Positions 23,218 through 64,000 of a DNA stretch of 64,000 nt are shown here, piece by piece. Numbering within the stretch: position 1 is the first letter of the stretch; each line of letters starts with the position of its first letter. The position numbers and the translations under genes are program-made. The notes below the pieces were generated by a model. It was not told the origin of the DNA, did no database searches, and saw nothing but the letters and a program-made list of their open reading frames with translations. The stretch lies in the sequence record PP680568.1; one strand, given 5' to 3'. Source of the DNA: Enterococcus phage VRE9_2.

Positions 23218-23293
23218 ACTTGAGTGGTCTTAAAAAGGAAAGACGCATGGTTTAATCTTCCATGAGACGTTGGTTCGAGTCCAACCTCAAGAA
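23218..23293 (+). tRNA. tRNA-like, atypical (A-A mismatch at acceptor 1-72; 9-nt anticodon loop TTTAATCTT); isotype undetermined
   Basis: Acceptor ACTTGAG/CTCAAGA, D-arm GTCT/AGAC, canonical T-arm GTTGG-TTCGAGT-CCAAC; first gene after a promoter. Confidence 0.35.
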
Positions 23294-23295
23294 TA

Positions 23296-23550
23296 TCAGG
23301 ATTGGCTATCCTTTCACCTTATAGCTAGAGGTTGATAAATATAAAGTGGAATTAACCACAGTTGGCTGCTCCCTAGGTTAAAGAAGATACCTATTGGGTC
23401 GGGGCATAAGCTAAGTTAACTAATAAACAACTTCTTTTAGTTAGCTTTTCTCACGAGTGATTGTTGAGGTTCAATTCCTTCTTAACCTATGGGCGGGACA
23501 ACACTCTATCGGAGATAAAAATATATAATTTAGTTTAATATTCTCGAGAA
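23296..23550 (+). ncRNA. Structured non-coding segment within the tRNA cluster (inverted repeats AAGCTAAGTTAACTAA...TTAGTTAGCTT; pseudo T-arm GAGGTTCAATTCC)
   Basis: No ORF; multiple hairpins; position analogous to small stable RNAs in phage tRNA clusters. Confidence 0.25.
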
Positions 23551-23554
23551 TGGT

Positions 23555-23649
23555 TGAGATATGGCGGAAAGGTAGACGCAAGGAGAGTCTCCCCATTGGA
23601 GACCCCTGTGCATGACGATGCAGTGTAGGTTCGAATCCTACTATCTCAG
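23555..23649 (+). tRNA. Type-II tRNA-like (Leu-type D-arm TGGCGGAAAGGTAGACGC, long variable arm); irregular anticodon-arm region, isotype unresolved
   Basis: Acceptor TGAGATA/TATCTCA, T-arm GTAGG-TTCGAAT-CCTAC, variable hairpin TGCAT-GACG-ATGCA; extra nucleotides between D and anticodon arms. Confidence 0.35.
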
Positions 23650-23650
23650 T

Positions 23651-23700
23651 TAAATAGGGACTAGAGCTAATTTATTTTAGCCAGTCCTTATCCCGAAAGG
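23651..23700 (+). other. Inter-tRNA hairpins incl. GNRA tetraloop TCCCGAAAGGGA
   Basis: GGACT..AGTCC hairpin then TCCC-GAAA-GGGA; same tetraloop hairpin occurs at the nrdD intron 3-prime end (10517-10530). Confidence 0.4.
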
Positions 23701-23770
23701 GAAAAATAATTTGACATTTTGAACATAATATGTTATAATTATTATATAATAAAGATAAGAAATATAAAAC

Positions 23771-23842
23771 GGCTTGTTGGTCAAGAAGTTAAGACGCTCG
23801 ACTTTCACTCGGGAATCACAGGTGCAAATCCTGTACAAGTCA
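23771..23842 (+). tRNA. tRNA-Glu (anticodon TTC)
   Basis: Acceptor GGCTTGT/ACAAGTC, anticodon arm CTCGA-CTTTCAC-TCGGG, T-arm ACAGG-TGCAAAT-CCTGT. Confidence 0.65.
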
Positions 23843-23931
23843 TTAACATTATTTGAAAAAAATCTTTCAAAATGTTATAATTAATATGTAAAAAGAAATA
23901 AAAAAAATTATTTTAAAAGGAGAGGTTCATC

Positions 23932-24324
23932 ATGGAAAAACAAACTAAAGCAGATATGTATCGTAATGCAGCAAAATTGTTGGAAGTAAATGCTCCTGAA
24001 TATGCAGAAATGTTATTGGAAGATGCTCAAAGAATTGAAGCTCGTAACGCAAGTCGTCGAAATGTTGATACCAAAGTTCAAAAAGAAAATAAACACATCG
24101 CTGCTTTAGTAATTGAGTTTTTCCATAATGATGCTGAAGATGGAATCGCTTATGACAGTGGTGAAATTGCAAATGCAGTTGGGATCGAAGTTTCTCCTCA
24201 GAAAATGTCAGCAATTATGCGTTTAGTTGGGGATGAAGTAGATAAAATGAACCAAGCTACGAATAATAAAGATCATGTTGGATATAAAAAGAAAGGAACT
24301 GAATTAGTTCCTGATGAAAAATAG
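23932..24324 (+). CDS. Small protein of the six-member paralog family (MEKQTKA.. N-terminus, C-terminal SPQKMSAIMRLVGDE..KKKG motif)
   Basis: 130 aa; N-terminus similar to MEFIMEK.. of 45220..45621 and 50746..51192. Confidence 0.55.
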   Translation: MEKQTKADMYRNAAKLLEVNAPEYAEMLLEDAQRIEARNASRRNVDTKVQKENKHIAALVIEFFHNDAEDGIAYDSGEIANAVGIEVSPQKMSAIMRLVGDEVDKMNQATNNKDHVGYKKKGTELVPDEK

Positions 24325-24371
24325 GACAAAATGTCTTAATTAAATATCCCCATATTTTATTGGGGATACAC

Positions 24372-24446
24372 CAGGGTATAGGAGAATTTGGTTAATCCGC
24401 TGCATTTGGGATGCAGAGATTGTTGGTTCAAATCCAGCTACCCTGA
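24372..24446 (+). tRNA. tRNA-Pro (anticodon TGG)
   Basis: Acceptor CAGGGTA/TACCCTG (C1-G72), anticodon arm CTGCA-TTTGGGA-TGCAG, T-arm GTTGG-TTCAAAT-CCAGC. Confidence 0.75.
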
Positions 24447-24522
24447 TTTGAACAACGTGTTAGAACGTTGGGCGTGAAGGGATTTATCCTATGAAGGGAT
24501 TTATCCTAACACGTTTAAACAT

Positions 24523-24593
24523 TCACCTATGATGAAATGGTATCATGACTGGCTGTTAACCAGTTCTTGTAGGTTCGAATCCTGCTGGGTGAG
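24523..24593 (+). tRNA. tRNA-Asn (anticodon GTT)
   Basis: Acceptor TCACCTA/TGGGTGA, D-arm ATGA/TCAT, anticodon arm ACTGG-CTGTTAA-CCAGT, T-arm GTAGG-TTCGAAT-CCTGC. Confidence 0.65.
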
Positions 24594-24599
24594 TATTTT

Positions 24600-24682
24600 G
24601 CGAGAGTGGCGGAATTGGCAGACGCACTAGATTTAGGATCTAGCGTTTTCATAACGTGTGGGTTCAAGTCCCACCTCTTGTA
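24600..24682 (+). tRNA. tRNA-Leu (anticodon TAG), type II
   Basis: D-arm TGGCGGAATTGGCAGACGC, anticodon arm CTAGA-TTTAGGA-TCTAG, variable hairpin, T-arm GTGGG-TTCAAGT-CCCAC. Confidence 0.8.
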
Positions 24683-24691
24683 TAATAAAAT

Positions 24692-24775
24692 GGAGAGTCC
24701 CTGTTGGCTAAAGGAAGAATGTTTTGAAAGCATTTGGCGGTAACACGTCCAAGGGTTCGATTCCCTTACTCTCCT
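24692..24775 (+). tRNA. tRNA-Ser (anticodon TGA), type II
   Basis: Acceptor GGAGAGT/ACTCTCC, anticodon arm AATGT-TTTGAAA-GCATT, long variable arm, T-arm AAGGG-TTCGATT-CCCTT. Confidence 0.7.
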
Positions 24776-24811
24776 TAAAGAATCTTACAGCAAATATTAA
24801 TACTTTTAATA

Positions 24812-24867
24812 ATATTTGGGAAAAAATAAGGTCTAGGTTCGACCCCTAGTATAAGTTTGGTACAACT
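24812..24867 (+). ncRNA. About 56-nt armless tRNA-like element (acceptor + D-like hairpin + canonical T-arm, no anticodon arm)
   Basis: ACTTTTA..TATAAGT acceptor pairing (one T-T), hairpin TATTT-GGGAAA-AAATA, T-arm CTAGG-TTCGACC-CCTAG. Confidence 0.3.
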
Positions 24868-24932
24868 TATATGGTGTAATGGTAGCACACAAAAGATAGA
24901 TTCTTGTTTTTGGGGAAGGTACCTCCCCAGTA
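24846..24932 (+). ncRNA. tRNA-like segment with canonical 5-prime half (acceptor ACTTATA, U8, D-arm GTGT-AATGGTA-GCAC) but non-canonical 3-prime half (GGGGA-AGGTACC-TCCCC hairpin, no matching acceptor strand)
   Basis: Direct reading of sequence; anticodon region CAAAAGATAGATTCTTGTTTTTG does not fold canonically. Confidence 0.25.
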
Positions 24933-24935
24933 TTT

Positions 24936-25019
24936 GGAGGATTATGCAAATTGGTGAAGCAAGTGGTCTGTAAAACCATGACGTAAGATACATTGGGGGT
25001 TCGAATCCCTTGTCCTCCA
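24936..25019 (+). tRNA. tRNA-Tyr (anticodon GTA), type II
   Basis: Acceptor GGAGGAT/GTCCTCC, anticodon arm GTGGT-CTGTAAA-ACCAT, long variable arm, T-arm GGGGG-TTCGAAT-CCCTT (two G-T pairs). Confidence 0.7.
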
Positions 25020-25020
25020 T

Positions 25021-25048
25021 AGACTGCCTTTGTCAAGCAGTCGAATGT
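25021..25048 (+). terminator. Hairpin GACTGC-CTTTGTCAA-GCAGTC after tRNA-Tyr
   Basis: Perfect 6-bp inverted repeat. Confidence 0.35.
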
Positions 25049-25179
25049 AACTAATTTTTTCATTAAATAAATATCAAATTGTGGCTGATTTCTACAGATT
25101 CAGAGCGGAGCATCCCCGCAGGTTGGGCATACTACAGTCCCCCATGACTTTCATGGGTTGCACATAGTTAGGAGGTAGC

Positions 25180-25365
25180 ATGATGTATTTAAAATTCATT
25201 GGTTTAAACGGAAGTTTAGGTTTAGAGAAGGACAAGATATACTTTGTTACCTCTGAGATAACTGAATATTATATTATTTTGAGAATACAGGGTGTTCACG
25301 GTAAGACAGTAATGTGTCCATACGAAACATTAGAAAAAATGTTAGAAAATTGGCAGGTCTGTTAG
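25180..25365 (+). CDS. Hypothetical small protein inside tRNA cluster
   Basis: 61 aa, GGAGG RBS 6 nt upstream. Confidence 0.45.
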   Translation: MMYLKFIGLNGSLGLEKDKIYFVTSEITEYYIILRIQGVHGKTVMCPYETLEKMLENWQVC

Positions 25366-25450
25366 TGTGTAAATAGCAAGGTCTGCATAAAACCTAAGAA
25401 ACAGCACGCACAGAAGATTATGTATTGTCTCCCTTTTGGACAAACATTTT

Positions 25451-25522
25451 GGCGCTATGGTCAAGCGGTTAAGACACTGGTCTTTCTAACCAGAATCCCG
25501 AGTTCGAATCTCGGTAGCGTCA
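25451..25522 (+). tRNA. tRNA with anticodon loop CTTTCTA (anticodon TTC, Glu-like; U at position 37 is atypical)
   Basis: Acceptor GGCGCTA/TAGCGTC, D-arm TGGTCAAGCGGTTAAGACA, anticodon stem CTGGT/ACCAG, T-arm CCGAG-TTCGAAT-CTCGG. Confidence 0.6.
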
Positions 25523-25744
25523 TAAAGAACGATACAGCAAACCTATTAAAATATTACAGAAGAGATTATGTAAGGAGCCGTAGATACCAACCGAAAAATC
25601 TACGAGTTCAATTATGGTTGGCGTTTGAGTTTTTTCTAGGTACTTTCCTTGAGTTACGTTAACACTCGAAAAAGGTCTAAACCTCGTTCTTGATAAATAA
25701 ACACAACTTTCCTTTCTTCCTGTCCATGTCACTGGACAGGTAAC
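25523..25744 (+). ncRNA. Structured spacer: interleaved inverted repeats CGTAGAT..CCAACC..ATCTACG..GGTTGG (pseudoknot-like) and 8-bp hairpin CCTGTCCA..TGGACAGG
   Basis: Direct reading; only spurious overlapping ORFs here. Confidence 0.3.
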
Positions 25745-25830
25745 GCGGGTATGGTGGAATTGGCAGACACATCAGACTTAAGATCTGACGAGAGGTATCT
25801 CTCATGCAGGTTCGACTCCTGCTATCCGTA
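25745..25830 (+). tRNA. tRNA-Leu (anticodon TAA), type II
   Basis: D-arm TGGTGGAATTGGCAGACAC, anticodon arm TCAGA-CTTAAGA-TCTGA, variable hairpin GAGAG..CTCTC, T-arm GCAGG-TTCGACT-CCTGC. Confidence 0.8.
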
Positions 25831-25903
25831 TAAAGAACCTAACAGCAATCACATTTAAAGGGATAATAGTATATCTAATAATATATAGGTTCTTGTTTTT
25901 TAT

Positions 25904-25976
25904 AGCTGGCGGCTGGTTGGATATCAGGGCAGGGTTCATAACCCAGCATAACTCAGTTCGATTCTGAGGCGTAGCA
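25904..25976 (+). pseudogene. tRNA-like with CAT anticodon loop (TTCATAA; Met/Ile2-type) and canonical T-arm but unpairable acceptor stem; possible pseudo-tRNA
   Basis: T-arm CTCAG-TTCGATT-CTGAG, anticodon stem CAGGG/CCCAG (A-A mismatch), 3-prime strand GCGTAGC has no complementary 5-prime strand. Confidence 0.3.
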
Positions 25977-25989
25977 ATATTATTGAGGA

Positions 25990-26158
25990 AGAGCTAACCT
26001 GGCGAAAATATGCTCAGAGGAAAAAACCTGGCGAAAAATTAGCCCCTAGTCAAATTTCCACTTTGGCGGCTAGGTTGAGGCGCACAATAGGCATAAAGAC
26101 ACCTCGTAAAAGGGCAAGCGCAGTGTCCTTACCCAAATAAAACAGCGGCAGCCTTTAC
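25990..26158 (+). ncRNA. Non-coding spacer with direct repeat AACCTGGCGAAAA x2 (25996, 26025) and GC-rich paired segments
   Basis: No ORF; repeats read directly. Confidence 0.25.
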
Positions 26159-26230
26159 GCTGGTTTCGTATAATGGCTATTACAGTTGACTTGTAATCTT
26201 CAAATGGGAGTTCGATTCTCTCAACCAGCA
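26159..26230 (+). tRNA. tRNA-Thr-like (anticodon loop CTTGTAA, anticodon TGT) with imperfect anticodon stem (GTTGA/TCTTC, 2 mismatches)
   Basis: Perfect acceptor GCTGGTT/AACCAGC, D-arm GTA-TAATGGCTAT-TAC, T-arm GGGAG-TTCGATT-CTCTC. Confidence 0.5.
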
Positions 26231-26327
26231 TTTATAAATGAATGAGGCATTGGTTAGGTCTAAAATAGATATAGGGGTATTTAGTTATCTACGGATGCTA
26301 AATATTGTGTAATTCATTTTATTTTTT

Positions 26328-26400
26328 TCGATGATTCGTTCAAATGGATAGGACGCTAGACTACGGATCTAGTAATAGAGGTTCAAGTCCTCTATCATCG
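26328..26400 (+). tRNA. tRNA-Arg (anticodon ACG)
   Basis: Acceptor CGATGAT/ATCATCG, anticodon arm CTAGA-CTACGGA-TCTAG, T-arm AGAGG-TTCAAGT-CCTCT. Confidence 0.75.
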
Positions 26401-26469
26401 GTAGTATAAGGAATGATATTTCGCTTATACGAAACGTTAAGAGATTCTCACACTGACGTCCCAATAGAG

Positions 26470-26510
26470 AAGGGTTTGAATAATCTTCCTTCTCTTGGTT
26501 TTTAATTTAT
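26470..26510 (+). terminator. Rho-independent terminator AGAGAAGG..CCTTCTCT + TGGTTTTT
   Basis: 8-bp stem followed by T-rich tract, between tRNA-Arg and tRNA-Trp. Confidence 0.5.
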
Positions 26511-26581
26511 GCGCTGTTGGTGTAGTGGTATCACATCTGGCTCCAAACCAGAAAATGGGGGTTCGATTCCTTCACGGCGTG
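26511..26581 (+). tRNA. tRNA-Trp (anticodon CCA)
   Basis: Acceptor GCGCTGT/ACGGCGT, anticodon arm TCTGG-CTCCAAA-CCAGA, T-arm GGGGG-TTCGATT-CCTTC. Confidence 0.75.
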
Positions 26582-26702
26582 TTAGTATTTATCCTAATAT
26601 TTATGATACCATGTAGAAGATATAAATAATAGGAAATAGGCTAGTCGTACAGAAAATGCCTATAGCAGCTTTAATAGCTGTCGCTTGATTTTTTAGCTAT
26701 TA

Positions 26703-26773
26703 CACCCCTATAATTTAATGGTAAAATACTGTGCTGATAACGCAGATTCCCTTGTTCGATTCAAGGTAGGGGT
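26703..26773 (+). tRNA. tRNA-Ile (anticodon GAT)
   Basis: Perfect acceptor ACCCCTA/TAGGGGT, D-arm ATTT/AAAT, anticodon arm CTGTG-CTGATAA-CGCAG, T-arm CCTTG-TTCGATT-CAAGG. Confidence 0.75.
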
Positions 26774-26808
26774 ATTTCTCTTTAATAAAAATAGAGGAAG
26801 GTAAAATA

Positions 26809-27300
26809 ATGTTTAGATGTGAAATTTGTGGCAAGGAATTTGACAGTCCCCTTAAACTAGGAGGGCACAAATCCTCTCATTCAAGAGGAAAGAGAAAAGA
26901 CTGCAAAAAAGAAATTAATTGTTTATATTGTAATAAAACTATGACTGTCAATAAATCAGATAAAAAACAATATTGTTCTGTTGAATGTTTTAGAGCTCAA
27001 GTACAAGAAGATAAAAACAATCGTTTTGTTGTAATTAGAAGCGAGAAACATGGCAATCATGTTTTAGACATTACTGTCAAAGAACTAGAAGACTATCGGC
27101 AAAAACAATTAGTTTGTGAGATTTGCGGCAACAAAGAAATCATCAAAAATGGAACTATAAAATTATCAGTCGATCACAACCATGAAACTTATAAATTTAG
27201 AGGTTTGCTATGCTATGCATGTAATGTTAAATTAGCTTGGTTAGAGAAAGAGTGGGATAGCATTAAATCTTACTTAGAAAGAGATAATTTTAAGTTTTAG
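26809..27300 (+). CDS. HNH endonuclease (phage endonuclease VII-like), probable homing/selfish endonuclease at edge of tRNA cluster
   Basis: ..LSVDHNHETYKFRGLLCYACN.. (DH-NH...RGLLC..CN motif) plus N-terminal CxxC pairs. Confidence 0.65.
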   Translation: MFRCEICGKEFDSPLKLGGHKSSHSRGKRKDCKKEINCLYCNKTMTVNKSDKKQYCSVECFRAQVQEDKNNRFVVIRSEKHGNHVLDITVKELEDYRQKQLVCEICGNKEIIKNGTIKLSVDHNHETYKFRGLLCYACNVKLAWLEKEWDSIKSYLERDNFKF

Positions 27301-27394
27301 TATTAATTTTTTTTTATTTAGATAGGAGAGCTTGGATAATATGAAGAAAAGATTAAACAAACTATAAATATCTTATAAAGGAGGTATTTATAAT

Positions 27395-27646
27395 ATGAGT
27401 AGAAGTAGAAAAAAACAACCATATTCAAGATATGTTTGTATGAAGAATTCTTCTGTCAGAAAATCCAAGAAACAAATAAATCGTCTTTATCGAAGAAGAA
27501 TGAAACAAGGTCTATATGATGAAGATGCCAAAATTCCAAGTTTGTATAAAAGACATGTAGACTGGGATTGGGATTATGAAATGATAAAAGGATATTTTCC
27601 TAAAGAAAAGTATCCTGATTTTTATGAAAAACTTATGAGAAAATAA
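27395..27646 (+). CDS. Hypothetical basic protein
   Basis: 83 aa, followed by terminator AAAACTCCCTAAGATAGGGAGTTTTTTATTT. Confidence 0.5.
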   Translation: MSRSRKKQPYSRYVCMKNSSVRKSKKQINRLYRRRMKQGLYDEDAKIPSLYKRHVDWDWDYEMIKGYFPKEKYPDFYEKLMRK

Positions 27647-27736
27647 AACTCCCTAAGATAGGGAGTTTTTTATTTGAAAAATTTAATTTAAAATGATATA
27701 ATTAATTATAAGGACAAATAAAAAGGAGATTCAAAA

Positions 27737-28012
27737 ATGAATAAAAGAGAAAAAATATTTAATAAAGCTAAAAATATTACTGCCAAAACTGAGTTAATTA
27801 GGGGCATAGTGCAAAATCCAATGCTTCCCGAAGAAGTAGATTTAGATGAATTCAAAAAAGAAATTCAACGTATCAAACGAGAATTAACAGATTATCAAAA
27901 TGAAGTTCTCTTATATTTTGCTTCTATTGGGGATGAAGAGAAAGAGAGAATTAAACAAGAACAATTAGAATTATCTGAATACTGGGAACAAAGGTGGGAA
28001 AATATACTATGA
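27737..28012 (+). CDS. Hypothetical protein
   Basis: 91 aa after conserved promoter-leader element. Confidence 0.5.
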   Translation: MNKREKIFNKAKNITAKTELIRGIVQNPMLPEEVDLDEFKKEIQRIKRELTDYQNEVLLYFASIGDEEKERIKQEQLELSEYWEQRWENIL

Positions 28013-28383
28013 AAGTATTTGTAGATGATTTAAGGAAGTGTCCTGAAAGATATGAATTATTTAGGAGCGCAGAAGATTTTCTTGACTGGAGACAGAAAAA
28101 TAATGATACAGAAATTGATATTTTGGCATTGGATCATGACCTAGGAGAAAACTGTTTGAATGGATATGAATTAGTTCAAGAATTAGTAGAATCTACTAGA
28201 ATGGACAATATTAAAACTATTATTTTCCACACAGATAATTTAATTGGTATGAAAAATATGTATTGTTATTTAAGTAATGCCCAAAAGCATGGGATTATTA
28301 GTGAAAATATTGTAATAAACCCAAATAAATATAATTGTTTAGATGGTAAGTTTACTCAAAGTCTATATCGTGTTATTAAATAA
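27994..28383 (+). CDS. Hypothetical protein
   Basis: 129 aa. Confidence 0.45.
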   Translation: MGKYTMKVFVDDLRKCPERYELFRSAEDFLDWRQKNNDTEIDILALDHDLGENCLNGYELVQELVESTRMDNIKTIIFHTDNLIGMKNMYCYLSNAQKHGIISENIVINPNKYNCLDGKFTQSLYRVIK

Positions 28384-28451
28384 TTTGAAATTATTAATAC
28401 AATATATTATAATTATATTATAAGATAAATAAAAGAAAGGAAGTTGTTTAA

Positions 28452-28685
28452 ATGTTGGAAGATGAATTATATGAACAAGGTTTTAATTCTGGATATATTA
28501 GTGCATTACAAAAAATTTCTCATAAACTTGCTATGAAGAAAGAGCCAATTCTTCGAGGTATTCTAGTGGGAGAACTATCTTCCGAAGAAGATTTAGCGAT
28601 ATTAAATACTATTAATGAGATTGAAAAAGTTGTTGAAGAAGAAAAAGAAAATCTTGAAGATGAAGAAAGTTGGTTAGATGAATGA
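28452..28685 (+). CDS. Hypothetical acidic protein
   Basis: 77 aa. Confidence 0.45.
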   Translation: MLEDELYEQGFNSGYISALQKISHKLAMKKEPILRGILVGELSSEEDLAILNTINEIEKVVEEEKENLEDEESWLDE

Positions 28686-28854
28686 AAGTAGGAGACACTG
28701 TTCTTATCCTTAAAGATCTTGAAGATGTTGCTTGTAAAGGGTGTATTGGAGTAATTGAAGAGATAAATATAGTCTTGAATAAAGTGTATTTTGTTTCAAA
28801 AGAAGGCATTGAAATGAATTGTTCTTTTTTTGAAGATGAGTTGGAGGTAATCTA

Positions 28855-29121
28855 ATGGTATTTGTACTTTTATTATTAAATGGAGGAGTTATATTAGCAA
28901 CGATTGGTTTAATTTTTCTTATTATTGCTACAATTTTATCTATTAAGTCAAGTGTTAGAGAAAAATATATCAATATAATTATTAAATTTTATTATATTGC
29001 AGGTATACTTTATATTATTTCAGCCTTTTTCTCTTTCGAAATTTTAACTATATTTTTAAAAGTTTTAGTTGGATTAATATGCTTATATAATGTTTATCTA
29101 ATCAAAAAAAATAAAAATTGA
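28855..29121 (+). CDS. Small membrane protein
   Basis: 88 aa, three hydrophobic segments. Confidence 0.45.
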   Translation: MVFVLLLLNGGVILATIGLIFLIIATILSIKSSVREKYINIIIKFYYIAGILYIISAFFSFEILTIFLKVLVGLICLYNVYLIKKNKN

Positions 29122-29182
29122 CTTTTTTAGCATAACATGTTATAATATTTATATAAGTTAGGAAGAAAAAACTTCCTAATAT

Positions 29183-29254
29183 GTCGCTATAGTGTAATGG
29201 ATAGCACAAGAAACTTCTAATTTCTAAGTTTAGGTTCGAGTCCTAATAGCGATG
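29183..29254 (+). tRNA. tRNA-Arg (anticodon TCT)
   Basis: Acceptor GTCGCTA/TAGCGAT, D-arm GTGT-AATGGATA-GCAC, anticodon arm AGAAA-CTTCTAA-TTTCT, T-arm TTAGG-TTCGAGT-CCTAA. Confidence 0.8.
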
Positions 29255-29259
29255 TTCAC

Positions 29260-29335
29260 AGTAGAATAGCTTATGTTTGGTTAAAGCACTCACCTTATAA
29301 GTGAGAGAGCGTGGGTTCGAACCCCACTTCTACTA
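29260..29335 (+). tRNA. tRNA-Ile (anticodon TAT), unusual UAU anticodon
   Basis: Perfect acceptor AGTAGAA/TTCTACT, D-arm GCTT/AAGC, anticodon arm CTCAC-CTTATAA-GTGAG, T-arm GTGGG-TTCGAAC-CCCAC. Confidence 0.7.
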
Positions 29336-29369
29336 TAAAGAATAAATAATGAAAGGAGAATCTCAAAAA

Positions 29370-29492
29370 ATGGAAGAAACATTAGATCGTGCAATAGAAT
29401 TATTAGAAGAAGCAGAAGATTTATTGAATAATGTTCATGCCTATGATAGCGACACATATAATTCTATTTGTGAATTTTTAGACTCTTTATAA
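29370..29492 (+). CDS. Small acidic ORF (40 aa) between tRNAs
   Basis: ATG 8 nt after GAAAGGAG; MEETLDRAIELLEEAEDLLNNVHAYDSDTYNSICEFLDSL. Confidence 0.35.
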   Translation: MEETLDRAIELLEEAEDLLNNVHAYDSDTYNSICEFLDSL

Positions 29493-29546
29493 TTAGGACA
29501 AAATGTCTTAAAGTATATGTAAATTATTTTAAAGACTTATACAGGT

Positions 29547-29602
29547 GCGAAATTAATTCAATAGGTAGAATTATTTAGATGGGTTCAAATCCCATATTTC
29601 GC
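29547..29602 (+). ncRNA. 56-nt armless tRNA-like element (perfect 7-bp acceptor GCGAAAT/ATTTCGC, D-arm ATTC-AATAGGTA-GAAT, T-arm ATGGG-TTCAAAT-CCCAT, no anticodon arm)
   Basis: Direct reading; only 7 nt (TATTTAG) between D- and T-arms; followed by the conserved AAAGAATCTTACAGCAAATAT trailer. Confidence 0.4.
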
Positions 29603-29717
29603 TTAGGTAAAGAATCTTACAGCAAATATCATATGTTTAATAGGCTAATTCAAATATATTATATAAGATTCTTGAAGTTATTTTTAGCCGATTAAGAGAT
29701 AAAGGAGATAAATAACT

Positions 29718-31214
29718 ATGACATTTTTAGATAATTTGAAAGAGGAAGCAACAGTTGGACGCACTTTCAATGGTGCAACTACTTATACTACTTCATTAAA
29801 TGCTAATGTTGATCTTTTTGCATTAGGTGGGTCTATGCGATACCAAAATGTTGGAGACAAGATTTCATTATTTGAAAAAGCATATAATGAAGACAGAGCT
29901 GTTGCATTGAGAAACCTAGTTTATATGCGAGATATTCGTAATGGTGGACTGGGTGAAAGAGCTATGTTCCACGCAGGAATTTGGTTCTTAGCTAAAAAGA
30001 AAGATGAAAAAGCACTTCATGTTATCATGAATAATGTAGCTGATTTTAGTCGTTGGGATGATCTATTTTTCATTATGAAACAAGATGAAAAATTGTTTGA
30101 TTATGGATTAATCATCATCAAAACTCAGCTTTTGGAAGATATGGACAATATGCGAAAAGGTAAAGAAATTTCTTTATTAGGGAAATGGCTACCTAATATT
30201 AATGCCAAAAGTGAAGAACGAAGAGCTTTTGGTCTTAGAGTTGCTAATGCTTTAGGATATACTAAACCTAGTGACTATAAGGTCTACCGAAAAATGTTAG
30301 TTAGATTAAGAGAAAAATTAGATTTAGTAGAAGTAAAATTAGCTGCTAAAGATTATGATTCAATTGATTTTTCTAAATTACCTTCTAGAGCAGGATTCAA
30401 GTATCGCTCAGCATTTTGGCGCCATATTTCAGATCGTTATTCTGAATTTTTAGAAGCTGTGAATAACGGCGAAGCTACAATGAATGGAAATTTGGTAATG
30501 CCAGATGAAATTATTGGAGCTTATGGATATCGGAGTTGTATTTCTTATGAAGAACAACCTGAATTAGAAGCTGCATGGAAATCTCTAAAAGATACTGTTA
30601 AGGGTTCTGACGAGAATGTAATTGTAGTTGCAGATACTTCTGCTTCTATGTGGGGTAAACCATGGGAAGTAGCAGAAGGTTTAGCAATTTATACTGCTGA
30701 ACGCTTAGAAGGACCATTCAAGAATAATTTTATCACTTTCTCTAGACGCCCACAATTGGTAACTCTACCAAGTAATTGTTCCTTACGAGATAAAATGAAC
30801 GAATATTCTCGTCATTCTATTATCGAAAACACAGATATTGAAGCAGTATTTAATCTTATTTTAGATACTGCTATCAAGAATAACACTCCAAAAGAAGAAG
30901 TTCCATCTAAAATTATCATTGTTTCAGATATGGAATTTGATCTTCAACGAGGAAATGACGTTACACATTTCAAACTTGCAAAATCTCGTTTTGAGGACGC
31001 TGGTTATGAAATGCCAGATGTAATCTTTTGGAATGTAGAAGCTAGATTAGGAAACTTGCCTGTTCGTTACAATGAACAGGGAGCAGCATTAGTATCTGGA
31101 TTCAGTACAAATATTCTAACTTCTATTTTGAATGGAAAATTAGAAACTCCAGAATCTATGATGTTAGAAACGTTGTCCAATCCAGCATTTGACTTCATTG
31201 ATGAAGCTATCTAA
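29718..31214 (+). CDS. DUF2828-like / von Willebrand factor A-like domain protein (TROVE/Ro-like family candidate)
   Basis: 498 aa; C-terminal ..VVADTSASMWGKP.. (DxSxS MIDAS-like) and overall resemblance to DUF2828 phage proteins. Confidence 0.5.
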   Translation: MTFLDNLKEEATVGRTFNGATTYTTSLNANVDLFALGGSMRYQNVGDKISLFEKAYNEDRAVALRNLVYMRDIRNGGLGERAMFHAGIWFLAKKKDEKALHVIMNNVADFSRWDDLFFIMKQDEKLFDYGLIIIKTQLLEDMDNMRKGKEISLLGKWLPNINAKSEERRAFGLRVANALGYTKPSDYKVYRKMLVRLREKLDLVEVKLAAKDYDSIDFSKLPSRAGFKYRSAFWRHISDRYSEFLEAVNNGEATMNGNLVMPDEIIGAYGYRSCISYEEQPELEAAWKSLKDTVKGSDENVIVVADTSASMWGKPWEVAEGLAIYTAERLEGPFKNNFITFSRRPQLVTLPSNCSLRDKMNEYSRHSIIENTDIEAVFNLILDTAIKNNTPKEEVPSKIIIVSDMEFDLQRGNDVTHFKLAKSRFEDAGYEMPDVIFWNVEARLGNLPVRYNEQGAALVSGFSTNILTSILNGKLETPESMMLETLSNPAFDFIDEAI

Positions 31215-31250
31215 ATTACCCCCTTTCTACCTCTTAATTGAGGTAGTTAC

Positions 31251-31324
31251 GCTTCTTTAGCTCAGTAGGTAGTAGCGCCAGTCTGAAGAACTGGAGGTCC
31301 CTGGTTCGACTCCAGGAGGAAGCA
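31251..31324 (+). tRNA. tRNA-Phe (anticodon GAA)
   Basis: Acceptor GCTTCTT/AGGAAGC, D-arm TAGCTCAGTAGGTAG, anticodon arm CCAGT-CTGAAGA-ACTGG, T-arm CCTGG-TTCGACT-CCAGG. Confidence 0.8.
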
Positions 31325-31332
31325 TTAATCCA

Positions 31333-31380
31333 GCCCAGGAAAGTGCCAATATTATATTCGCTCTCTTGGGCTTTTCATAT
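31333..31380 (+). terminator. Rho-independent terminator after tRNA-Phe
   Basis: GCCCAGG..CTTGGGC stem followed by TTTTCATATTT. Confidence 0.45.
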
Positions 31381-31441
31381 TTGAAAAAATATATTAATCA
31401 TGTTATAATTAATTATAAAGTTAATTAAGAATTTTAAAAGT

Positions 31442-31515
31442 GTCCCTGTCGCCAAGAGGCTTAAGGCTATGGATTGCAAACCCATAATACGTGAGTTCGA
31501 ATCTCACCAGGGACT
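31442..31515 (+). tRNA. tRNA-Cys (anticodon GCA)
   Basis: Perfect acceptor GTCCCTG/CAGGGAC, anticodon arm ATGGA-TTGCAAA-CCCAT, T-arm GTGAG-TTCGAAT-CTCAC; driven by the conserved TGTTATAATTAATTATAAAG promoter without RBS. Confidence 0.8.
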
Positions 31516-31542
31516 TTTAAATAAAAAGGGGTCGATAATAAA

Positions 31543-31839
31543 ATGGACAAAGAAAAAATTAAAGAATCTTGGAACTATTGTTTAGCCCAAAGTATTGGAG
31601 TTAGAAAATTAGCTTCTAAAAATGAAGCTATTAGAAAAGATAGTTTAGAAAAAAACATTGCTACTAAAACTGCCTTAGAAGTTTTAAAAGAGCAATTAAA
31701 TGTTTTAATTGAGATGCTGGAGAAAATTGATTTAGAAGAAGAACTTCTCTTAACTTGTCAAGAGAAAGCTGCGGTAGAGTATCTTATTGAAGTATATGAA
31801 AATCTTATTATTGTGAAAGAGGGGGAGCAACTTGACTAA
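31543..31839 (+). CDS. Hypothetical protein
   Basis: 98 aa. Confidence 0.5.
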   Translation: MDKEKIKESWNYCLAQSIGVRKLASKNEAIRKDSLEKNIATKTALEVLKEQLNVLIEMLEKIDLEEELLLTCQEKAAVEYLIEVYENLIIVKEGEQLD

Positions 31840-32476
31840 ATTTATTACAAGTGATTGGCATTTCTTTCATAATAATGCTTGTGGTCCAGAAGGATTCATT
31901 TCTACTAGAAAAAAGTTTTCCTCTGTAGAAGAGATGAACGATAATATTATTAAAACTATTAATCAAAAGGTTGGTAGAGATGATACTATTATTCATTTAG
32001 GAGATATTGGTTTTGGGAAACCTAAAAAATTGTTTGAAACATTAGAAAAAATCAATGGACAAATTATTTTAATTAAGGGAAATCATGATAGTTCAAAATT
32101 ATTTAAGTATATTGTAAATAATAATTATCATTATCCATATAGTAATCCTAAAAAACGTAAACAATCTCCTGACCGAGTTAAATTTTTAGTTGAAGAAGTT
32201 GGTTTAAGGGAAAAAATGAATGGTAAGGTTTACTATTTAACTCATTACCCATTTCAGTTAGGAGAACAACGTAAAAATATGCGTTCAATTTGTGGACATA
32301 TTCATGAGCAGATTGCTCCTGAGGCTAATATGATTAACGTAGGTATTGATTCTCCTGAAATTGCTTCAAAGATTTCTAATTTTGGAGAACCTCTTCTTCT
32401 GGAAGATGCAATAGAATTAGTTGATAAAAAATGGGAAAAATGGTATAATGATACTATAAGAATTTTGGGAAGTTAA
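31832..32476 (+). CDS. Calcineurin-like metallophosphoesterase
   Basis: SDWHFFH, LGDIGFG, GNHD motifs. Confidence 0.65.
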   Translation: MTKFITSDWHFFHNNACGPEGFISTRKKFSSVEEMNDNIIKTINQKVGRDDTIIHLGDIGFGKPKKLFETLEKINGQIILIKGNHDSSKLFKYIVNNNYHYPYSNPKKRKQSPDRVKFLVEEVGLREKMNGKVYYLTHYPFQLGEQRKNMRSICGHIHEQIAPEANMINVGIDSPEIASKISNFGEPLLLEDAIELVDKKWEKWYNDTIRILGS

Positions 32477-32489
32477 TCTTCCCTTTTAT

Positions 32490-32579
32490 GGAGCTATGAC
32501 TGAGAGGTTGAAGGTGACGCACTGCTAATGCGTTAGTCGGCATAAGGTTGGCTCATGGGTTCGAATCCCATTAGCTCCT
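32490..32579 (+). tRNA. tRNA-Ser (anticodon GCT), type II
   Basis: Perfect acceptor GGAGCTA/TAGCTCC, anticodon arm ACGCA-CTGCTAA-TGCGT, long variable arm, T-arm ATGGG-TTCGAAT-CCCAT. Confidence 0.8.
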
Positions 32580-59534: not shown

Positions 59535-60818
59535 ATGGCAGATAAGAAACGAGTAATTTTGGATACAAATATTTTGATGAGTACAAAAAGAATTAACAGT
59601 TTAATTGAGGAATTTGAAGATTGTGATTTGTTAGTTACACTTGGAACCTTAGGAGAACTAGATAGATTAAAAACCGCTGAGGGTCAGCGAGGGTTTGAAG
59701 CTAGAAATGGCTTAAGAATGCTGCGAGAAAATGAAGATTTATTCACGATTATCGACACCGAAAATCCAGAAAGACCCTCTTATGATAAATCTACTGTAGA
59801 TGGAGATATCATATTCTTGGCGCAAAAAGAGAATCGTTTGCTTTCCGAGATCGAGGTAGTAACTAACGACTTATCTATGGGAACAGTAGCTAAAGCAAAT
59901 AAGGTTAATGTACGAACCTTCTACGAAGACGCAGACAAATATCGAGAAGGATATACAGTTGTTGATGTCTCTGATGAACTAGAAGATGATACAAATGCAA
60001 TGCTATTCGCCCTAGCTAATCAATATATCTCCTCTCTTGGGTTATTAGAAAATGAATATTTAGTTTTAGAAAAACATGGAGAACCTTATTTCTTTGTTGT
60101 AGAAGAAGGTAGAGCAACAAAAATTTTCGATGATAACCCTGTAAGACATAATAAACATATCAATATATGTTCTTCGGAATTTGGTACTTTAAACCCTAAA
60201 GAAAAAGACTATGCTCAATTTTGCGCTTTTGATATGTTAGGTAAGCATGATATTTCATTATTAACTGGTCCTGCTGGATCTGGGAAAACTTATTTAATGC
60301 TTGCAAAACAATTTGAAATGTTAGAAAAAGAAGAAATTTGCAAAATTACAATATTTGTTAATCCAGAAAAGGCTCGTGGAGCTAAAACGCTTGGTTTTTA
60401 TAAAGGTGACAGAAATCTAAAATTAATGCAAGAATCTATTGGAGGAATCTTAGCTTCAAAAATTGGCGAACGAGAAAGAGCAATTGAATATATTGAATCT
60501 GGACTTATTGAAATTATTCCTATTTCAGATATTCGTGGTTATGAAGTAACAGAAAATTCTTCTTTATATATTACAGAAGCTCAAAATTTAAATAAAGATT
60601 TAATGCAGTTAGCTTTGCAACGTGCTGGAGAAGGAACTAAAGTTTTTATTGAAGGAGATCCAACTACGCAATTGGATTCATGGGCTTATGAAGGCGATAA
60701 TAATGGTATGCTTAAATTAATTGAAGTTTTTGCTGGAACGGAAGTTTTCGGTAATATTCATTTAAGTAATATCTATCGCTCTCGTGTTGCAGATTTAGCA
60801 GAACAAATGACAAAATGA
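59535..60818 (+). CDS. phoH: PhoH-like ATPase with N-terminal PIN domain
   Basis: N-terminal VILDTNILM (PIN), Walker A GPAGSGKT, Walker B-like ..LYITEAQNL.. Confidence 0.7.
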   Translation: MADKKRVILDTNILMSTKRINSLIEEFEDCDLLVTLGTLGELDRLKTAEGQRGFEARNGLRMLRENEDLFTIIDTENPERPSYDKSTVDGDIIFLAQKENRLLSEIEVVTNDLSMGTVAKANKVNVRTFYEDADKYREGYTVVDVSDELEDDTNAMLFALANQYISSLGLLENEYLVLEKHGEPYFFVVEEGRATKIFDDNPVRHNKHINICSSEFGTLNPKEKDYAQFCAFDMLGKHDISLLTGPAGSGKTYLMLAKQFEMLEKEEICKITIFVNPEKARGAKTLGFYKGDRNLKLMQESIGGILASKIGERERAIEYIESGLIEIIPISDIRGYEVTENSSLYITEAQNLNKDLMQLALQRAGEGTKVFIEGDPTTQLDSWAYEGDNNGMLKLIEVFAGTEVFGNIHLSNIYRSRVADLAEQMTK

Positions 60819-60889: not shown

Positions 60890-62053
60890 ATGGCTCAGGA
60901 AGAAAAACAAAAATCGGTAGTAGAAATGCAAGCAGAAAAAATTCACTGCGAACATTGTAATAGATTTTATCCTGCAAAGGATTTTTATAAAGATAAAAAT
61001 GGAGACCCAATGAAAAAATGTAAGAAATGTATGGCATCTCTTATTGATTTAAAATCTCCATCAACAGTAATGAAGATTATGGAAGAAATTGATATTCCAT
61101 ATATTCCAGATGAATGGAATTCATTAAGAGAACGATATGAATTCTCAACATCTAAAGATGGTAAAACTATTCGTAACAAAAATGCAAACCAATCTGTTTT
61201 AGGACGCTATATTGGTAAAATGCGATTAGAACAATATAAAGGCTATAAATTCTCTGATACTCCTCAATTTATGGAACAACACGATCAAGAAATTCAGCAA
61301 AAACGTGATATACTCCATCAAAAACTAGAGGATTTATTAGATAAAGGGTATGATCCTGACACCGCTATGCAATTAATGGCAGGAAGAATTGATACAGAAG
61401 ATGAAGATCCTGCACTAACTAAAACTCAAATAAAAGAATTAAAAATTAAATGGGGAACTTTATATAATGAAGAAGAGTTAATTCAATTAGAAACTTTTTA
61501 TGGGGAAATGCACGAATCTTATGATATCACTTCTGCTTCTCATGAAGATTACTTAAAACAAATCTGTAAAGTTTCTCTACGTATGCACAGTTTAATTGAT
61601 TCAGGAATGTATGACGAATACCAAAAATTATCTAATACTTATGATAAAATGATGAAATCTGCTAAATTTACTGCTTCCCAAGAGAAAGAGGAAGATAAAT
61701 TTATTGATAGTATCTCTGAAATGGTGCGTTTGTGTGAAGAAGAAGGATTTATTCCTGTTTATCATACAGATGAGCCACAAGATATCGTAGATGTTACATT
61801 ACGAGATTTCACAAACTATGTGCGTAATTTAGTTGAAAAAGAATTAAACTTAGATTCTCTAATTGAAAAAGGCTTAGAACAAATTAAATTAGACGAAGAA
61901 AAAGAACAAATGTCTGCAGATGATGCTCTGTTTGTAGAAGAAGACATGGTTTCTGATGATGATTTATTGTTTGAAGCTGTTAATACCGAGGTTCTGCCAG
62001 AACTTACTGATGAAGCTAAGTTATTGGGGGTAGAACTTGATGGCAAAGAATAA
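60890..62053 (+). CDS. Hypothetical protein with N-terminal zinc ribbon, immediately upstream of terminase large subunit (small terminase candidate by position only)
   Basis: 387 aa; CEHCNRFY..CKKC; overlaps TerL start. Confidence 0.45.
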   Translation: MAQEEKQKSVVEMQAEKIHCEHCNRFYPAKDFYKDKNGDPMKKCKKCMASLIDLKSPSTVMKIMEEIDIPYIPDEWNSLRERYEFSTSKDGKTIRNKNANQSVLGRYIGKMRLEQYKGYKFSDTPQFMEQHDQEIQQKRDILHQKLEDLLDKGYDPDTAMQLMAGRIDTEDEDPALTKTQIKELKIKWGTLYNEEELIQLETFYGEMHESYDITSASHEDYLKQICKVSLRMHSLIDSGMYDEYQKLSNTYDKMMKSAKFTASQEKEEDKFIDSISEMVRLCEEEGFIPVYHTDEPQDIVDVTLRDFTNYVRNLVEKELNLDSLIEKGLEQIKLDEEKEQMSADDALFVEEDMVSDDDLLFEAVNTEVLPELTDEAKLLGVELDGKE

Positions 62054-62765
62054 AAAACATGAAGATAAAAATACAACTCTTATTGATATTAAATCAGATT
62101 TTATTAACTCCAAAAAAAATCGAGAAGTATTCTTAACAGAAGAGAGAGTGCGCAAAAGCATACCCACTTTTACAGAATACGTCTCCTTTTGGAGAGAATA
62201 TCCAGATATGTTTATTGATATGATAAAGGGACCAGACAGCAAATTTAATTTTTTCTTTTACCAAAGATTATTTTTACGTGCTGCTATGAGGCATAAATAC
62301 TTTTTTGGTACTTTTACACGTGCCTTTTCTAAATCATTTTTATCTGTTATGCTAATGATGGAAAAATGTATTTTATATCCAGGAATTAAAGTATTTATTA
62401 CTTCTGGTGGTAAAGAGCAGGCTGCTGGTATTGCTGCAGAAAAAATTAATGAAATTTGTGATATGATACCATCAATTAAAAAAGAAATCAATTGGGCGCC
62501 AGGACAAACGAAGCTTAATGGTAAAGATTATGTGCAGGTTGTATTTAAAAATGGTAGTCGATTCGACGTAGTAGCAGCTAAAGAAAGTTCTCGTGGTGGA
62601 CGTCGACATTCAGGACTTATTGATGAGGTTATTTTGGTTGATGGAGAAAAATTCTCACAAGTTATTTTACCTATGATGAACGTATCTCGTCGAGCTGCTA
62701 ATGGACAAGTAGATCCTAATGATAAAATGAATAAATCTCAAGTTTATATCACGTTAATAATCTAA
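62037..62765 (+). CDS. terL: Terminase large subunit, N-terminal ATPase exon (T4 gp17-like); reading frame runs into intron and stops at 62765
   Basis: ..FGTFTRAFSKSF.. Walker A-like, ..GSRFDVVAAKESSRGGRRHSGLIDEV.. Walker B (IDE) region, matching T4-type TerL order. Confidence 0.6.
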   Translation: MMAKNKKHEDKNTTLIDIKSDFINSKKNREVFLTEERVRKSIPTFTEYVSFWREYPDMFIDMIKGPDSKFNFFFYQRLFLRAAMRHKYFFGTFTRAFSKSFLSVMLMMEKCILYPGIKVFITSGGKEQAAGIAAEKINEICDMIPSIKKEINWAPGQTKLNGKDYVQVVFKNGSRFDVVAAKESSRGGRRHSGLIDEVILVDGEKFSQVILPMMNVSRRAANGQVDPNDKMNKSQVYITLII

Positions 62766-64000
62766 AAGTTATAATTCACTTGTACTTTATTTTATAATAA
62801 ATAAAATATAAAATAAAGGAGTTTTTAAAAATGGAAGAAGATAAAAAATTTACTTATTGGTTTTACAAAATAGAAAATAAAATAAACTCTAAAAAATATA
62901 TTGGTCTAACTAGTAATATAGCTAGAAGACAGTTGAGGCATTTTACAGATTTACTGACACAAAGACATCATAATTCTTTTTTACAAAAAGAATATAATTT
63001 GTTTGGTAAAGAAGCTTTTTCTTTTGAAATTATAGAAGAAAAAAGTTTAAGTGTAAAAGAAGCTTCTCAAAGAGAGATTTTTTGGATTCAGAATTTTGAT
63101 TCATATAATAATGGATATAATCAAAATCCAGGAGGTCTTGGAGGACATACTGGAGCTACAAATGGAGGTTCTCATTTAATAGAATCAGATATATATGCAA
63201 TTAATTCTGCATTAGAATTTTCTTCGAGACCTGGTGCAGTTTTATCTGAAATTTTTAATGTAACAACAACAACAATAAGTAGAATTAAAAAAGGAAGTAG
63301 CCATTTCCAATACACACTAAAATATCAAAAGTTGGATTATGATAAAAGATTTGAAATTTTTAAATCTTTTTGTCAAAGCTCAGACTTTATTTCGAAAAAA
63401 CGAAATAGTACTATTATGCCAACCTCAAAAAGAAAACTGAATGAATTTCAAGTTCATTGTGTTTTACTGAATGAAGAACAAGGAAGAATAGTTCCTTTGA
63501 AGAGATTAGCAAGATATTTTAATGTTAGAGGAAATGTTTTAACTGAAATAATAAACGATAGGTCTTATAGAGATTATCGTGATACCTTCCTTAAAAAAAC
63601 AAGTGAAGAAAAACAAGAGATGGCGTCATTCTTGCGTGAGCAAGAAAAGCAAACTTCTCGAATTGCTGGGACCCCTTTGAGAGCAACAAACCACAATATT
63701 TCTGAAAAGAAAATATGAAGGTTAGAAAATTGTTGCTTATGAGGCAATCAGCAGCCAAGCCCCTAAGTCAAAATGATATGGGGAAGGTTCAACGACTAAG
63801 TATCCTAGTACACTAGGTAGCGGGAAGCTCTTCTTAATAAGAAGATGAAGATATAGTCTGGTCTATATAGAAATATATAGGAAATTGATTAATGGTCAAT
63901 TTCATAACATCACGCGGCAGGCTTTAAAGATCATTTTAGTTATCAAAAACAAATTCAGCTCTTAGTATGGCAATTAATTAAACCTGGTACTGCTATTATT
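62766..64000 (+). mobile_element. Group I intron (5-prime boundary approximate, 3-prime end beyond window) carrying GIY-YIG homing endonuclease; interrupts terL
   Basis: TerL frame terminates prematurely; intervening GIY-YIG ORF; P7-like GGTTCAACGACTA at 63786-63798, same 12-mer as in nrdD intron. Confidence 0.55.
62831..63718 (+). CDS. GIY-YIG homing endonuclease (intron-encoded)
   Basis: ..FTYWFYKIENKINSKKYIGLTSNIARRQLRHF..FSFEIIEE..EIFWIQNF..GYNQN. Confidence 0.75.
   Translation: MEEDKKFTYWFYKIENKINSKKYIGLTSNIARRQLRHFTDLLTQRHHNSFLQKEYNLFGKEAFSFEIIEEKSLSVKEASQREIFWIQNFDSYNNGYNQNPGGLGGHTGATNGGSHLIESDIYAINSALEFSSRPGAVLSEIFNVTTTTISRIKKGSSHFQYTLKYQKLDYDKRFEIFKSFCQSSDFISKKRNSTIMPTSKRKLNEFQVHCVLLNEEQGRIVPLKRLARYFNVRGNVLTEIINDRSYRDYRDTFLKKTSEEKQEMASFLREQEKQTSRIAGTPLRATNHNISEKKI

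Follow-up and report, generated by a model that had tools for sequence, protein, structure and literature searches.

The 64,000-nt stretch of Enterococcus phage VRE9_2 analysed here (record PP680568.1; hereafter the window) ends within a gene for the large terminase subunit (terL, product TerL) that is interrupted by a group I intron containing the gene for a GIY-YIG homing endonuclease. The reading frame of the first exon opens at TTG 62037 or ATG 62040 and runs to a TAA stop at 62763–62765, the end point given in an earlier sequence-only reading of the window, and the last 11 nt of this open frame (62755–62765) are intron sequence. An unbroken form of the gene is found in Enterococcus phage H1, where 1,776 nt encode a protein of 591 amino acids (aa) annotated by the depositor as the large terminase subunit. 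Window positions 62037–62752 align with the first part of H1 terL and positions 63917–64000 with the part directly after it, leaving only four unaligned bases at the join. At the protein level (tblastn), H1 TerL residues 1–238 match window positions 62040–62753 at 99.2%, and residues 239–267 match the 86 nt (29 codons) of exon 2 present in the window at 96.6%.

The splice sites are placed after U62754 and after G63914, a pair that obeys the U/G rule and keeps the reading frame and therefore defines an intron of 1,160 nt (62755–63914); other junctions were rejected, as only this pair both satisfies the rule and restores the sequence ITSAG. Ligation of the exons in silico gives ...TAT ATC ACG T/CG GCA GGC TTT... 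(the slash marks the junction), translated as ...NKSQVYIT/SAGFKDH..., and the spliced product is colinear with the intronless H1 TerL and identical to it at 265 of 267 residues, which bears out the proposal that an intron interrupts terL. The second exon had been expected to lie beyond the window; the part encoding the nuclease domain does lie downstream, but exon 2 itself begins at 63915, inside the window. Extension of the sequence downstream, suggested earlier as a check, is provided by contigs that carry the same intron and run into a complete exon 2. In one of these, contig L004, exon 2 continues to its stop codon and completes a 591-aa TerL that is identical to the H1 protein at 587 of 591 residues.

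The insertion site itself differs between alleles with and without the intron. The intron-less site of H1 and VRE9_4 contains ...TATATCACCAGTGCAGGC..., and intron-less alleles read ACC AGT (H1, and EF5 and VRE9_3 at the studied site; locus L001, 3213–3220), where intron-containing alleles have ACG TCG in its place (window 62751–62756). The substitution is synonymous (Thr-Ser) and switches the serine codon family, thereby creating the ACGU required by the first intron helix, P1; it fits either co-conversion or selection for the ACGU of P1. The hexamer ATCACG is present both at the end of exon 1 before its final T (62748–62753) and at the end of the intron (63909–63914), and CGTGAT at 63578–63583 is able to pair with either copy. 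Interpretation of this repeat as a remnant of an older exon 2 or as a target-site duplication was rejected, since the exon end in the sister contigs L004 to L009 reads ATTACG; the intron tails of L011 and L017 are AAAUG and ACAAUG, and the repeat is probably best treated as coincidence.

The structured RNA-like sequence noticed earlier downstream of the endonuclease gene corresponds to a full-length match to the Rfam group I intron family RF00028 at 63583–63880 (95.1 bits against a gathering threshold of 50, E 3.2e-23, model positions 1–253 of 253), which begins approximately 130 nt before the end of the endonuclease open reading frame (ORF). An Rfam scan of the whole window at the gathering threshold returns this one group I intron, in terL, together with 17 tRNAs. 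Covariation was assessed across 22 distinct introns located at the same TerL stretch, with the exon end and first intron bases joined to the stretch that begins at the guide sequence and reaches exon 2; pairing was counted on the structure derived from the window sequence, and partners slid by 1–3 columns and 500 shuffles served as controls. In this alignment 95.9% of cells are paired, compared with 35–47% in the slid controls, 33 of the 54 pairs have changes on both sides, and the observed covariation score was attained by none of the 500 shuffles. Helices P3, P4, P5, P6, P8 and P9 are also backed by the covariation counts, and P7 is invariant across the 22 introns and hence uninformative in this respect. 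The minimum free energy (MFE) fold of 63615–63914 contains the same helices (z = −5.2).

The P1 helix, which joins the end of exon 1 to the internal guide sequence, is paired in 99.2% of cells, with compensatory changes at four of its six pairs and the splice-site U.G present in 22 of 22 introns. The covarying positions −2, −3, −4 and +1 occur as G-C/A-U, C-G/U-A, A-U/U-A and U-A/A-U/G-C, respectively. The 76 nt that separate the 5′ splice site from the ATG of the endonuclease gene contain no recognisable guide sequence. Two other candidates were considered and rejected, as neither is conserved in L011, L017 or L014: GCGTGA at 63634–63639 (6 bp including a U.G), which in reality belongs to the covarying P2 hairpin as its 5′ strand and loop, and CGTGATA at 63578–63584 (7 bp without a U.G). 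The GNRA loop of P2 is kept in all homologues listed.

The ORF within the intron encodes a 295-aa protein with a Pfam GIY-YIG domain (PF01541) at residues 9–97 (34.1 bits against a cut-off of 22.6). Residues 11–98 align with residues 5–91 of the catalytic domain of I-TevI (1mk0/1ln0) with an E-value of 5.5e-10, and Y12, Y23, G25, R33, H37, E82 and N94 are invariant in 23 relatives; the Tyr, Arg, Glu and Asn of the I-TevI active site line up with invariant positions. Past residue 97 the window endonuclease has no Pfam match, and no protein matching it past the catalytic domain was found in 50,697 phage genomes. Helix-turn-helix (HTH) domains are detected in its relatives, namely CENP-B_N in 8 of 23 (best E 5.6e-07), HTH_Tnp_4 and HTH_11. 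The enzyme is thus predicted to be modular in the manner of I-TevI, with a different DNA-binding part.

The sequence-only reading had described this gene as free-standing with its own ribosome-binding site. The ribosome-binding site is present (AAGGAG, 62816–62821), but the gene is not free-standing, as it is located within the loop of P1 and extends into the catalytic core. The loop spans 864 nt (62757–63620), enough to accommodate the ribosome-binding site and the initial 790 nt of the ORF, while the last 98 nt of the ORF (approximately 32 codons) overlap the guide sequence, P2, the 5′ strands of P3 and P4, P5 and P5a/b, with the UGA stop codon (63716–63718) falling in P5b. On the positive strand, a promoter search of the intron region ahead of the endonuclease gene gave no signal above background. 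The layout is uncommon but not new, because ORFs that extend into intron core sequences are already a recognised arrangement (PMC3984707, Figure 2). The features of the locus, and those of a second intron in nrdD discussed below, are listed in Table 1.

Table 1. Features of the interrupted terL locus and of the nrdD intron in the VRE9_2 window.
Feature	Coordinates	Strand	Basis or remarks
terL exon 1	62040..62754	+	Codons 1–238 and first base of Ser239; ATPase domain
Group I intron, 1,160 nt, subgroup IA-like	62755..63914	+	Rfam match, frame restoration, covariation
terL exon 2 start	63915..64000	+	CG of Ser239, then AGFKDHFSYQKQIQLLVWQLIKPGTAII...; continues past window end
P1 5′ strand	62751..62756	+	Exon ACGU and intron UA; U62754 pairs with G63623
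Shine-Dalgarno AAGGAG	62816..62821	+	9 nt before ATG 62831; inside P1 loop
GIY-YIG homing endonuclease gene, 295 aa	62831..63718	+	Pfam GIY-YIG, I-TevI domain match, PHROG homing-endonuclease families
Internal guide sequence (P1 3′ strand, UGGCGU)	63621..63626	+	Covaries across 22 introns; encodes Met-Ala-Ser of the endonuclease
P2 hairpin	63629..63646	+	7 bp, GUGA (GNRA) tetraloop; 6 of 7 pairs compensatory
Catalytic core P3–P9	63654..63880	+	Rfam alignment, covariation, MFE fold
P5a/b extension	63682–63737	+	
P6	63755–63787	+	
J6/7-P7 with 12-mer	63787–63798	+	
P7.1 hairpin	63804–63817	+	
P8	63829–63845	+	
P7 3′ strand	63854–63858	+	
P9, GAAA loop	63863–63880	+	
P9.1 hairpin	63881–63903	+	MFE fold
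11-nt tail to terminal G63914	After P9.1, within 63881..63914	+	Junction fixed by frame restoration
nrdD group I intron	9515–10540		Exon 1 ends ...TGT GGG T (9514); exon 2 from AT TTA TCC (10541)
nrdD intron endonuclease-like ORF	9777–10514		NUMOD3 and I-HmuI NUMOD-like motifs; by eye GIY...YVG-like N-terminus

A megablast search of the region against the 50,697 phage genomes returned no record carrying the studied intron. Exactly the same endonuclease is encoded by the gut-metagenome contigs L004 to L009, and a search of IMG/VR with the endonuclease protein adds one contig, L010. More than 250 homologues of the endonuclease are found in metagenomes, and all 31 full-length relatives fetched with their genomic context (41–62% identical; drawn from L011–L017 and L019–L044) lie in a group I intron of terL at TerL residues 237–239. 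The spliced junctions of 21 homologues (L017 not among them) are all colinear and translate to NKSQ(I/V)(Y/F)(I/V)T(T/S)AG. Two insertion points are represented: the window, L011 and L017 have the intron within the serine codon, in phase 1 (...ACG U/CG...), and in the 19 other translated members (L014 and 18 of L019–L044) it lies 5 nt upstream in phase 2 (...UAY RU/A ACN...). The guide sequence follows the exon sequence at both points, and the GCGU of the window guide also occurs in upstream-site members whose exon ends in ACGU (L024, L032 and L038). The intron lineage has changed its insertion point by 5 nt. The interval between P7 and the P3 3′ strand, in which introns of subgroup IA2 (T4 td/Twort type) have two extra hairpins, contains a single hairpin (63804–63817) in the window intron and two (P7.1 and P7.2) in the upstream-site relatives.

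The host region, together with 12 kb upstream, is 94–98% identical to Enterococcus phages VRE9_4, H1, VRE9_3, EF1 and EF5; H1 is listed as unclassified Caudoviricetes, as is the EF1/EF5/H1/VRE9 group. PHROG matches of TerL are confined to families of unknown function that correspond to split pieces of the gene, including families 15503 and 24618. The fold was examined with an AlphaFold2 model of a full-length homologue (P0121, 73% identical), built from an alignment of 33 relatives; mean confidence (predicted local distance difference test, pLDDT) is 66, with the C-terminal half modelled well and the ATPase half poorly. A Foldseek search of the model against the PDB returns T4 gp17 (3cpe) first (E 2.2e-12), the top 27 matches are all large terminases, and the nuclease domain of G20c superimposes with a template modelling (TM) score of 0.69, normalised to the target. 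The gene product is accordingly a sequence-divergent TerL, identified by modelled fold and by the depositor's annotation of H1. The intron is inserted in the stretch NKSQ-x-Y-x-T-x-AG, in which N, K, S, Q, T, A and G are invariant in 33 homologues, and which follows a Walker-B-like GLIDEV by approximately 43 residues; from the position of GLIDEV, ITSAG may represent the ATPase coupling motif (motif III).

Eight near-identical copies of the intron are available (the window and L004–L010), and these differ by 0–1.1% across the 1,160 nt. In the flanking exons (120 nt at the end of exon 1 and 86 nt at the start of exon 2), most comparisons give a divergence of up to approximately 8%; a small number of upstream values exceed this, those of L007 being inflated by a neighbouring intron, and L006 and L010 are identical throughout intron and flanks. 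The low divergence of the intron relative to its flanks suggests recent spread, and this pattern and the switch to ACG TCG fit homing with co-conversion of flanking sequence, although neither proves it.

The anatomy of the locus, the restored frame, the covariation, the terminase fold, the endonuclease family and the population pattern together make it very probable that this is a mobile IA-type group I intron in terL with an I-TevI-type endonuclease, for which catalysis, cleavage, homing and competition are predicted. In the transcript, the exon ACGU and intron UA would pair with UGGCGU 866 nt downstream to form P1, with the U.G at the cleavage site. The P3–P9 core would then fold and an external guanosine would attack after U62754, following which the terminal G63914 would take the place of the guanosine and the exons would be ligated into an mRNA for the intact 591-aa TerL. 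During mixed infection the endonuclease would cut intron-less terL near the insertion site, and repair from the intron-bearing allele would copy the intron and some flanking exon into the recipient, constituting homing. Ribosomes translating the endonuclease ORF would have to unfold the guide sequence and P2–P5 of the ribozyme; competition between endonuclease production and splicing is therefore expected on any one transcript, as the ORF reads through these elements.

Several observations weigh against this interpretation. P1 comprises just four exon pairs and its strands are 866 nt apart, and P10 is weak, with at most two pairs by eye. G63914 precedes exon 2 in the window; in the homologues, 3′ splice sites were assigned by means of a search pattern requiring G, such that conservation of the terminal G is partly built in. 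Some Bastillevirinae introns splice in vivo and not in vitro, and self-sufficiency is therefore not to be assumed (PMC11878797). With respect to the host gene, TerL has no Pfam match at E ≤ 1, and PDB sequence (phmmer) and profile searches with it returned nothing significant. Residues 176–310 of the P0121 model, around the insertion site, have a pLDDT below 50, and the assignment of ITSAG to motif III is tentative because this region is modelled with low confidence.

It is exceedingly unlikely that the locus instead consists of a truncated terL pseudogene followed by a free-standing endonuclease gene, with no splicing and a functional TerL encoded elsewhere. Free-standing GIY-YIG genes are common in phages, the exon-1 frame does end in a stop codon, and the endonuclease gene has its own ribosome-binding site; however, the ORF shares sequence with a complete group I core that comes immediately after it, removal of the intron brings the frame back exactly, sister contigs continue to a full-length TerL, and the P1 pairing between exon end and guide covaries across 22 phages. 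A pseudogene accompanied by a complete TerL elsewhere had also been raised in the sequence-only reading and is ruled out because a tblastn search with H1 TerL found no further TerL-like sequence in the 64-kb window. It is also improbable that a genuine group I intron is present whose endonuclease is inactive or does not drive homing, with the element kept by vertical descent and general recombination of co-infecting phages. Defunct intron endonucleases are known, such as I-TevIII of T4 (PMC2790892), the 24 C-terminal codons of the VRE9_2 enzyme are dictated by ribozyme sequence, and its activity is a prediction, yet the ORF is intact in all eight near-identical copies and in more than 100 relatives of 260–295 aa, the positions corresponding to the I-TevI active site do not vary, and most pairwise comparisons show less divergence in the intron than in its flanks.

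The window contains a second group I intron, in nrdD, and the two had been proposed to be related on account of a shared 12-mer. The 13-mer GGTTCAACGACTA lies at 63786–63798, and the 12-mer within it, GTTCAACGACTA, does occur in two exact copies in the window (9705–9716 and 63787–63798) and appears in none of 100 shuffles. That the introns are recent duplicates or close relatives spread within the genome is nevertheless very unlikely. Beyond the 12-mer, unexpected by chance, both introns begin U/UAA, both are IA-like and each has an endonuclease ORF. Against this, the 12-mer forms the J6/7-P7 core, fits the Rfam consensus GGUUCAaAGACUA and is class-wide, being present in group I introns of 46 fetched loci that include other terL sites. 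Comparison of the two cores, which had been suggested as a check, gives 61% identity, inside the range of 51–72% for introns at different sites, where the window and L011 share 88%. A blastn comparison of the two introns found nothing significant apart from the 12-mer, and their endonucleases have no significant similarity (BLASTP E above 1), the nrdD ORF having NUMOD3 and I-HmuI-like motifs in contrast to the HTH families of the terL enzyme. ORF placement also differs: the terL ORF occupies the P1 loop, and the nrdD ORF follows the catalytic core on its 3′ side. Both are introns of one class, with no sign of a special relationship.

Removal of the nrdD intron restores RVCG/YLSF. The proposed covariance-model search detects both introns, with the nrdD core (9497–9765) scoring 45.9 bits in a local Rfam scan (E 6e-10), just under the gathering score of 50; the omission of this intron from a whole-window Rfam scan in E-value mode is a filter effect and not evidence of absence. 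The frame of its ORF contains no ATG, GTG or TTG before 10068, and TAGGAG at 9782–9787 lies 10 nt before ATA 9798; this is either a gene with a non-canonical start or a decaying one.

In this Enterococcus phage group and among its relatives, terL is a hot spot for introns. Two to three interruptions of the gene at other positions occur in EF5 and VRE9_3 (L002, 2504–5612; L003, 3004–5622), terL of L008 has three interruptions (4200–8952), and that of L011 (1–6000) is in six pieces with HNH and GIY-YIG genes between them. In L017 an exon of 8 nt (2867–2874; CAGCCGGT) separates the studied intron from an intron at the GGT/TTT site used in EF5 and VRE9_3; the endonuclease target regions in L017 must overlap, and the introns may hinder or protect against each other's homing. 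An in-frame TAG stands at a conserved Gln of TerL (KS-TAG-IY) and of the endonuclease (LLRN-TAG-QKQ) in L014/L016 (2918–2920 and 3775–3777), L027 and L037. The database protein P0017 has Q at the position of the in-frame TAG, and these loci do not translate to the query; they probably read TAG as glutamine.

The surrounding packaging module resembles that of the Bacillus prophage SPbeta, with a PIN-PhoH fusion protein (59535–60818) followed by a YonG_N-domain protein (60890–62053), the gene for which overlaps the start of terL by 14 nt; a YonD_N-domain protein is encoded downstream of terL in L004. The 17 tRNA genes are clustered on the positive strand at 23218–32579 of the window.

In GenBank, the pieces of split terL genes are annotated as hypothetical proteins, and terL of this phage group is routinely miscalled as several such proteins, as in EF5 and VRE9_3. 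Correct splice coordinates yield the true 591-aa TerL, a standard marker for phage phylogeny and for typing of packaging mechanisms. The locus is one of a large family of introns specific to terL in gut phages that had not been characterised before. Engineering could make use of the endonuclease, whose target may be long and specific. Where therapeutic Enterococcus phages infect the same cell, the intron may also influence how they compete, since carriers are able to convert or exclude phages that lack it. For the study of guide-sequence covariation and of the shift of insertion site, the family is a clean natural data set; the interest is mainly one of annotation, and current understanding of group I introns is unchanged. 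A further, rather unlikely possibility links two proposals, namely that competition between translation and splicing acts as a switch or timer on DNA packaging, and that the Enterococcus-phage branch of the family naturally moved its insertion point 5 nt downstream in the motif, keeping a guide sequence (GCGU) that some original-site members share. If the former were true, each transcript would give either endonuclease or spliced terL mRNA and the intron would be no neutral passenger; the latter, of which the 5-nt difference is the observed part, would mean that the intron slid or was retargeted in nature, perhaps through imprecise repair or through reverse splicing into an ACGU close by.

Terminase genes are among the typical targets of phage introns (PMC3984707), and the earlier remark that split terL genes are known elsewhere agrees with the literature. 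Group I introns with endonuclease genes are described in terL of Twort-like staphylococcal phages, in work cited in PMC6409932, and 5 of 52 terL genes are split in the Bastille-like phages of Bastillevirinae, among which the terL of SIOphi splices both in vitro and in vivo (PMC11878797). Exon skipping has been described in the same SIOphi gene, and a small internal exon in a ribonucleotide reductase gene of Bastillevirinae (PMC11878797). In phage iF6, a split terL was put down to inserted VSR endonuclease genes (PMC10054541). Our literature search found no paper on terL introns of the EF1/EF5/H1/VRE9 Enterococcus phage group. The VRE9_2 intron shares with terL introns of Herelleviridae the host gene, the ribozyme class (mostly IA), the presence of an endonuclease gene in the intron and the frequent occurrence of several introns per terL, but it belongs to another lineage, the EF1/EF5/H1/VRE9 group, with a TerL lacking a Pfam terminase match. 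The terL endonucleases reported for Bastillevirinae are of VSR-like 'HNH' types, whereas that of VRE9_2 is a GIY-YIG enzyme (PMC11878797, Table 2).

Closer comparisons are provided by introns at neighbouring positions of the same motif. The metagenomic terL introns L014–L016 and L019–L044 encode homologous endonucleases (41–54% identity) and share the P1-loop placement, the guide sequence and P2 inside the ORF, and the TerL motif; they differ in their own insertion point 5 nt upstream, in having P7.1 and P7.2 and a short P5, and in that most of their ORFs stop in or near P2. The EF5/EF1 intron, which is ORF-less and 250 nt long, and its VRE9_3 version with an HNH gene are found 8 nt downstream in the closest relatives of the host phage, in the same gene and motif and with cores approximately 72% identical to that of VRE9_2, but are inserted after GGT (AG/F) with another guide and another or absent endonuclease.

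The T4 td intron and its endonuclease I-TevI provide the classical point of comparison. Like the VRE9_2 intron, the td intron has an IA-type core with the J6/7-P7 and J8/7 sequences and resides in a conserved DNA-metabolism gene, and both endonucleases have a GIY-YIG catalytic domain followed by a separate DNA-binding region, a predicted one in the VRE9_2 enzyme. In the td intron the ORF is looped out of P6, whereas that of VRE9_2 occupies the P1 loop and continues across the guide sequence and P2–P5, and the HTH region of the VRE9_2 family (CENP-B/psq/HTH_11-type) has no detectable similarity to I-TevI past residue 98. The VRE9_2 element is thus a known kind of selfish element in a gene already known as a favourite target, with a solidly supported anatomy and a predicted activity; set against these known systems, it adds the modest twists of an ORF that overlaps its ribozyme and of insertion 5 nt away from the site used by related introns.

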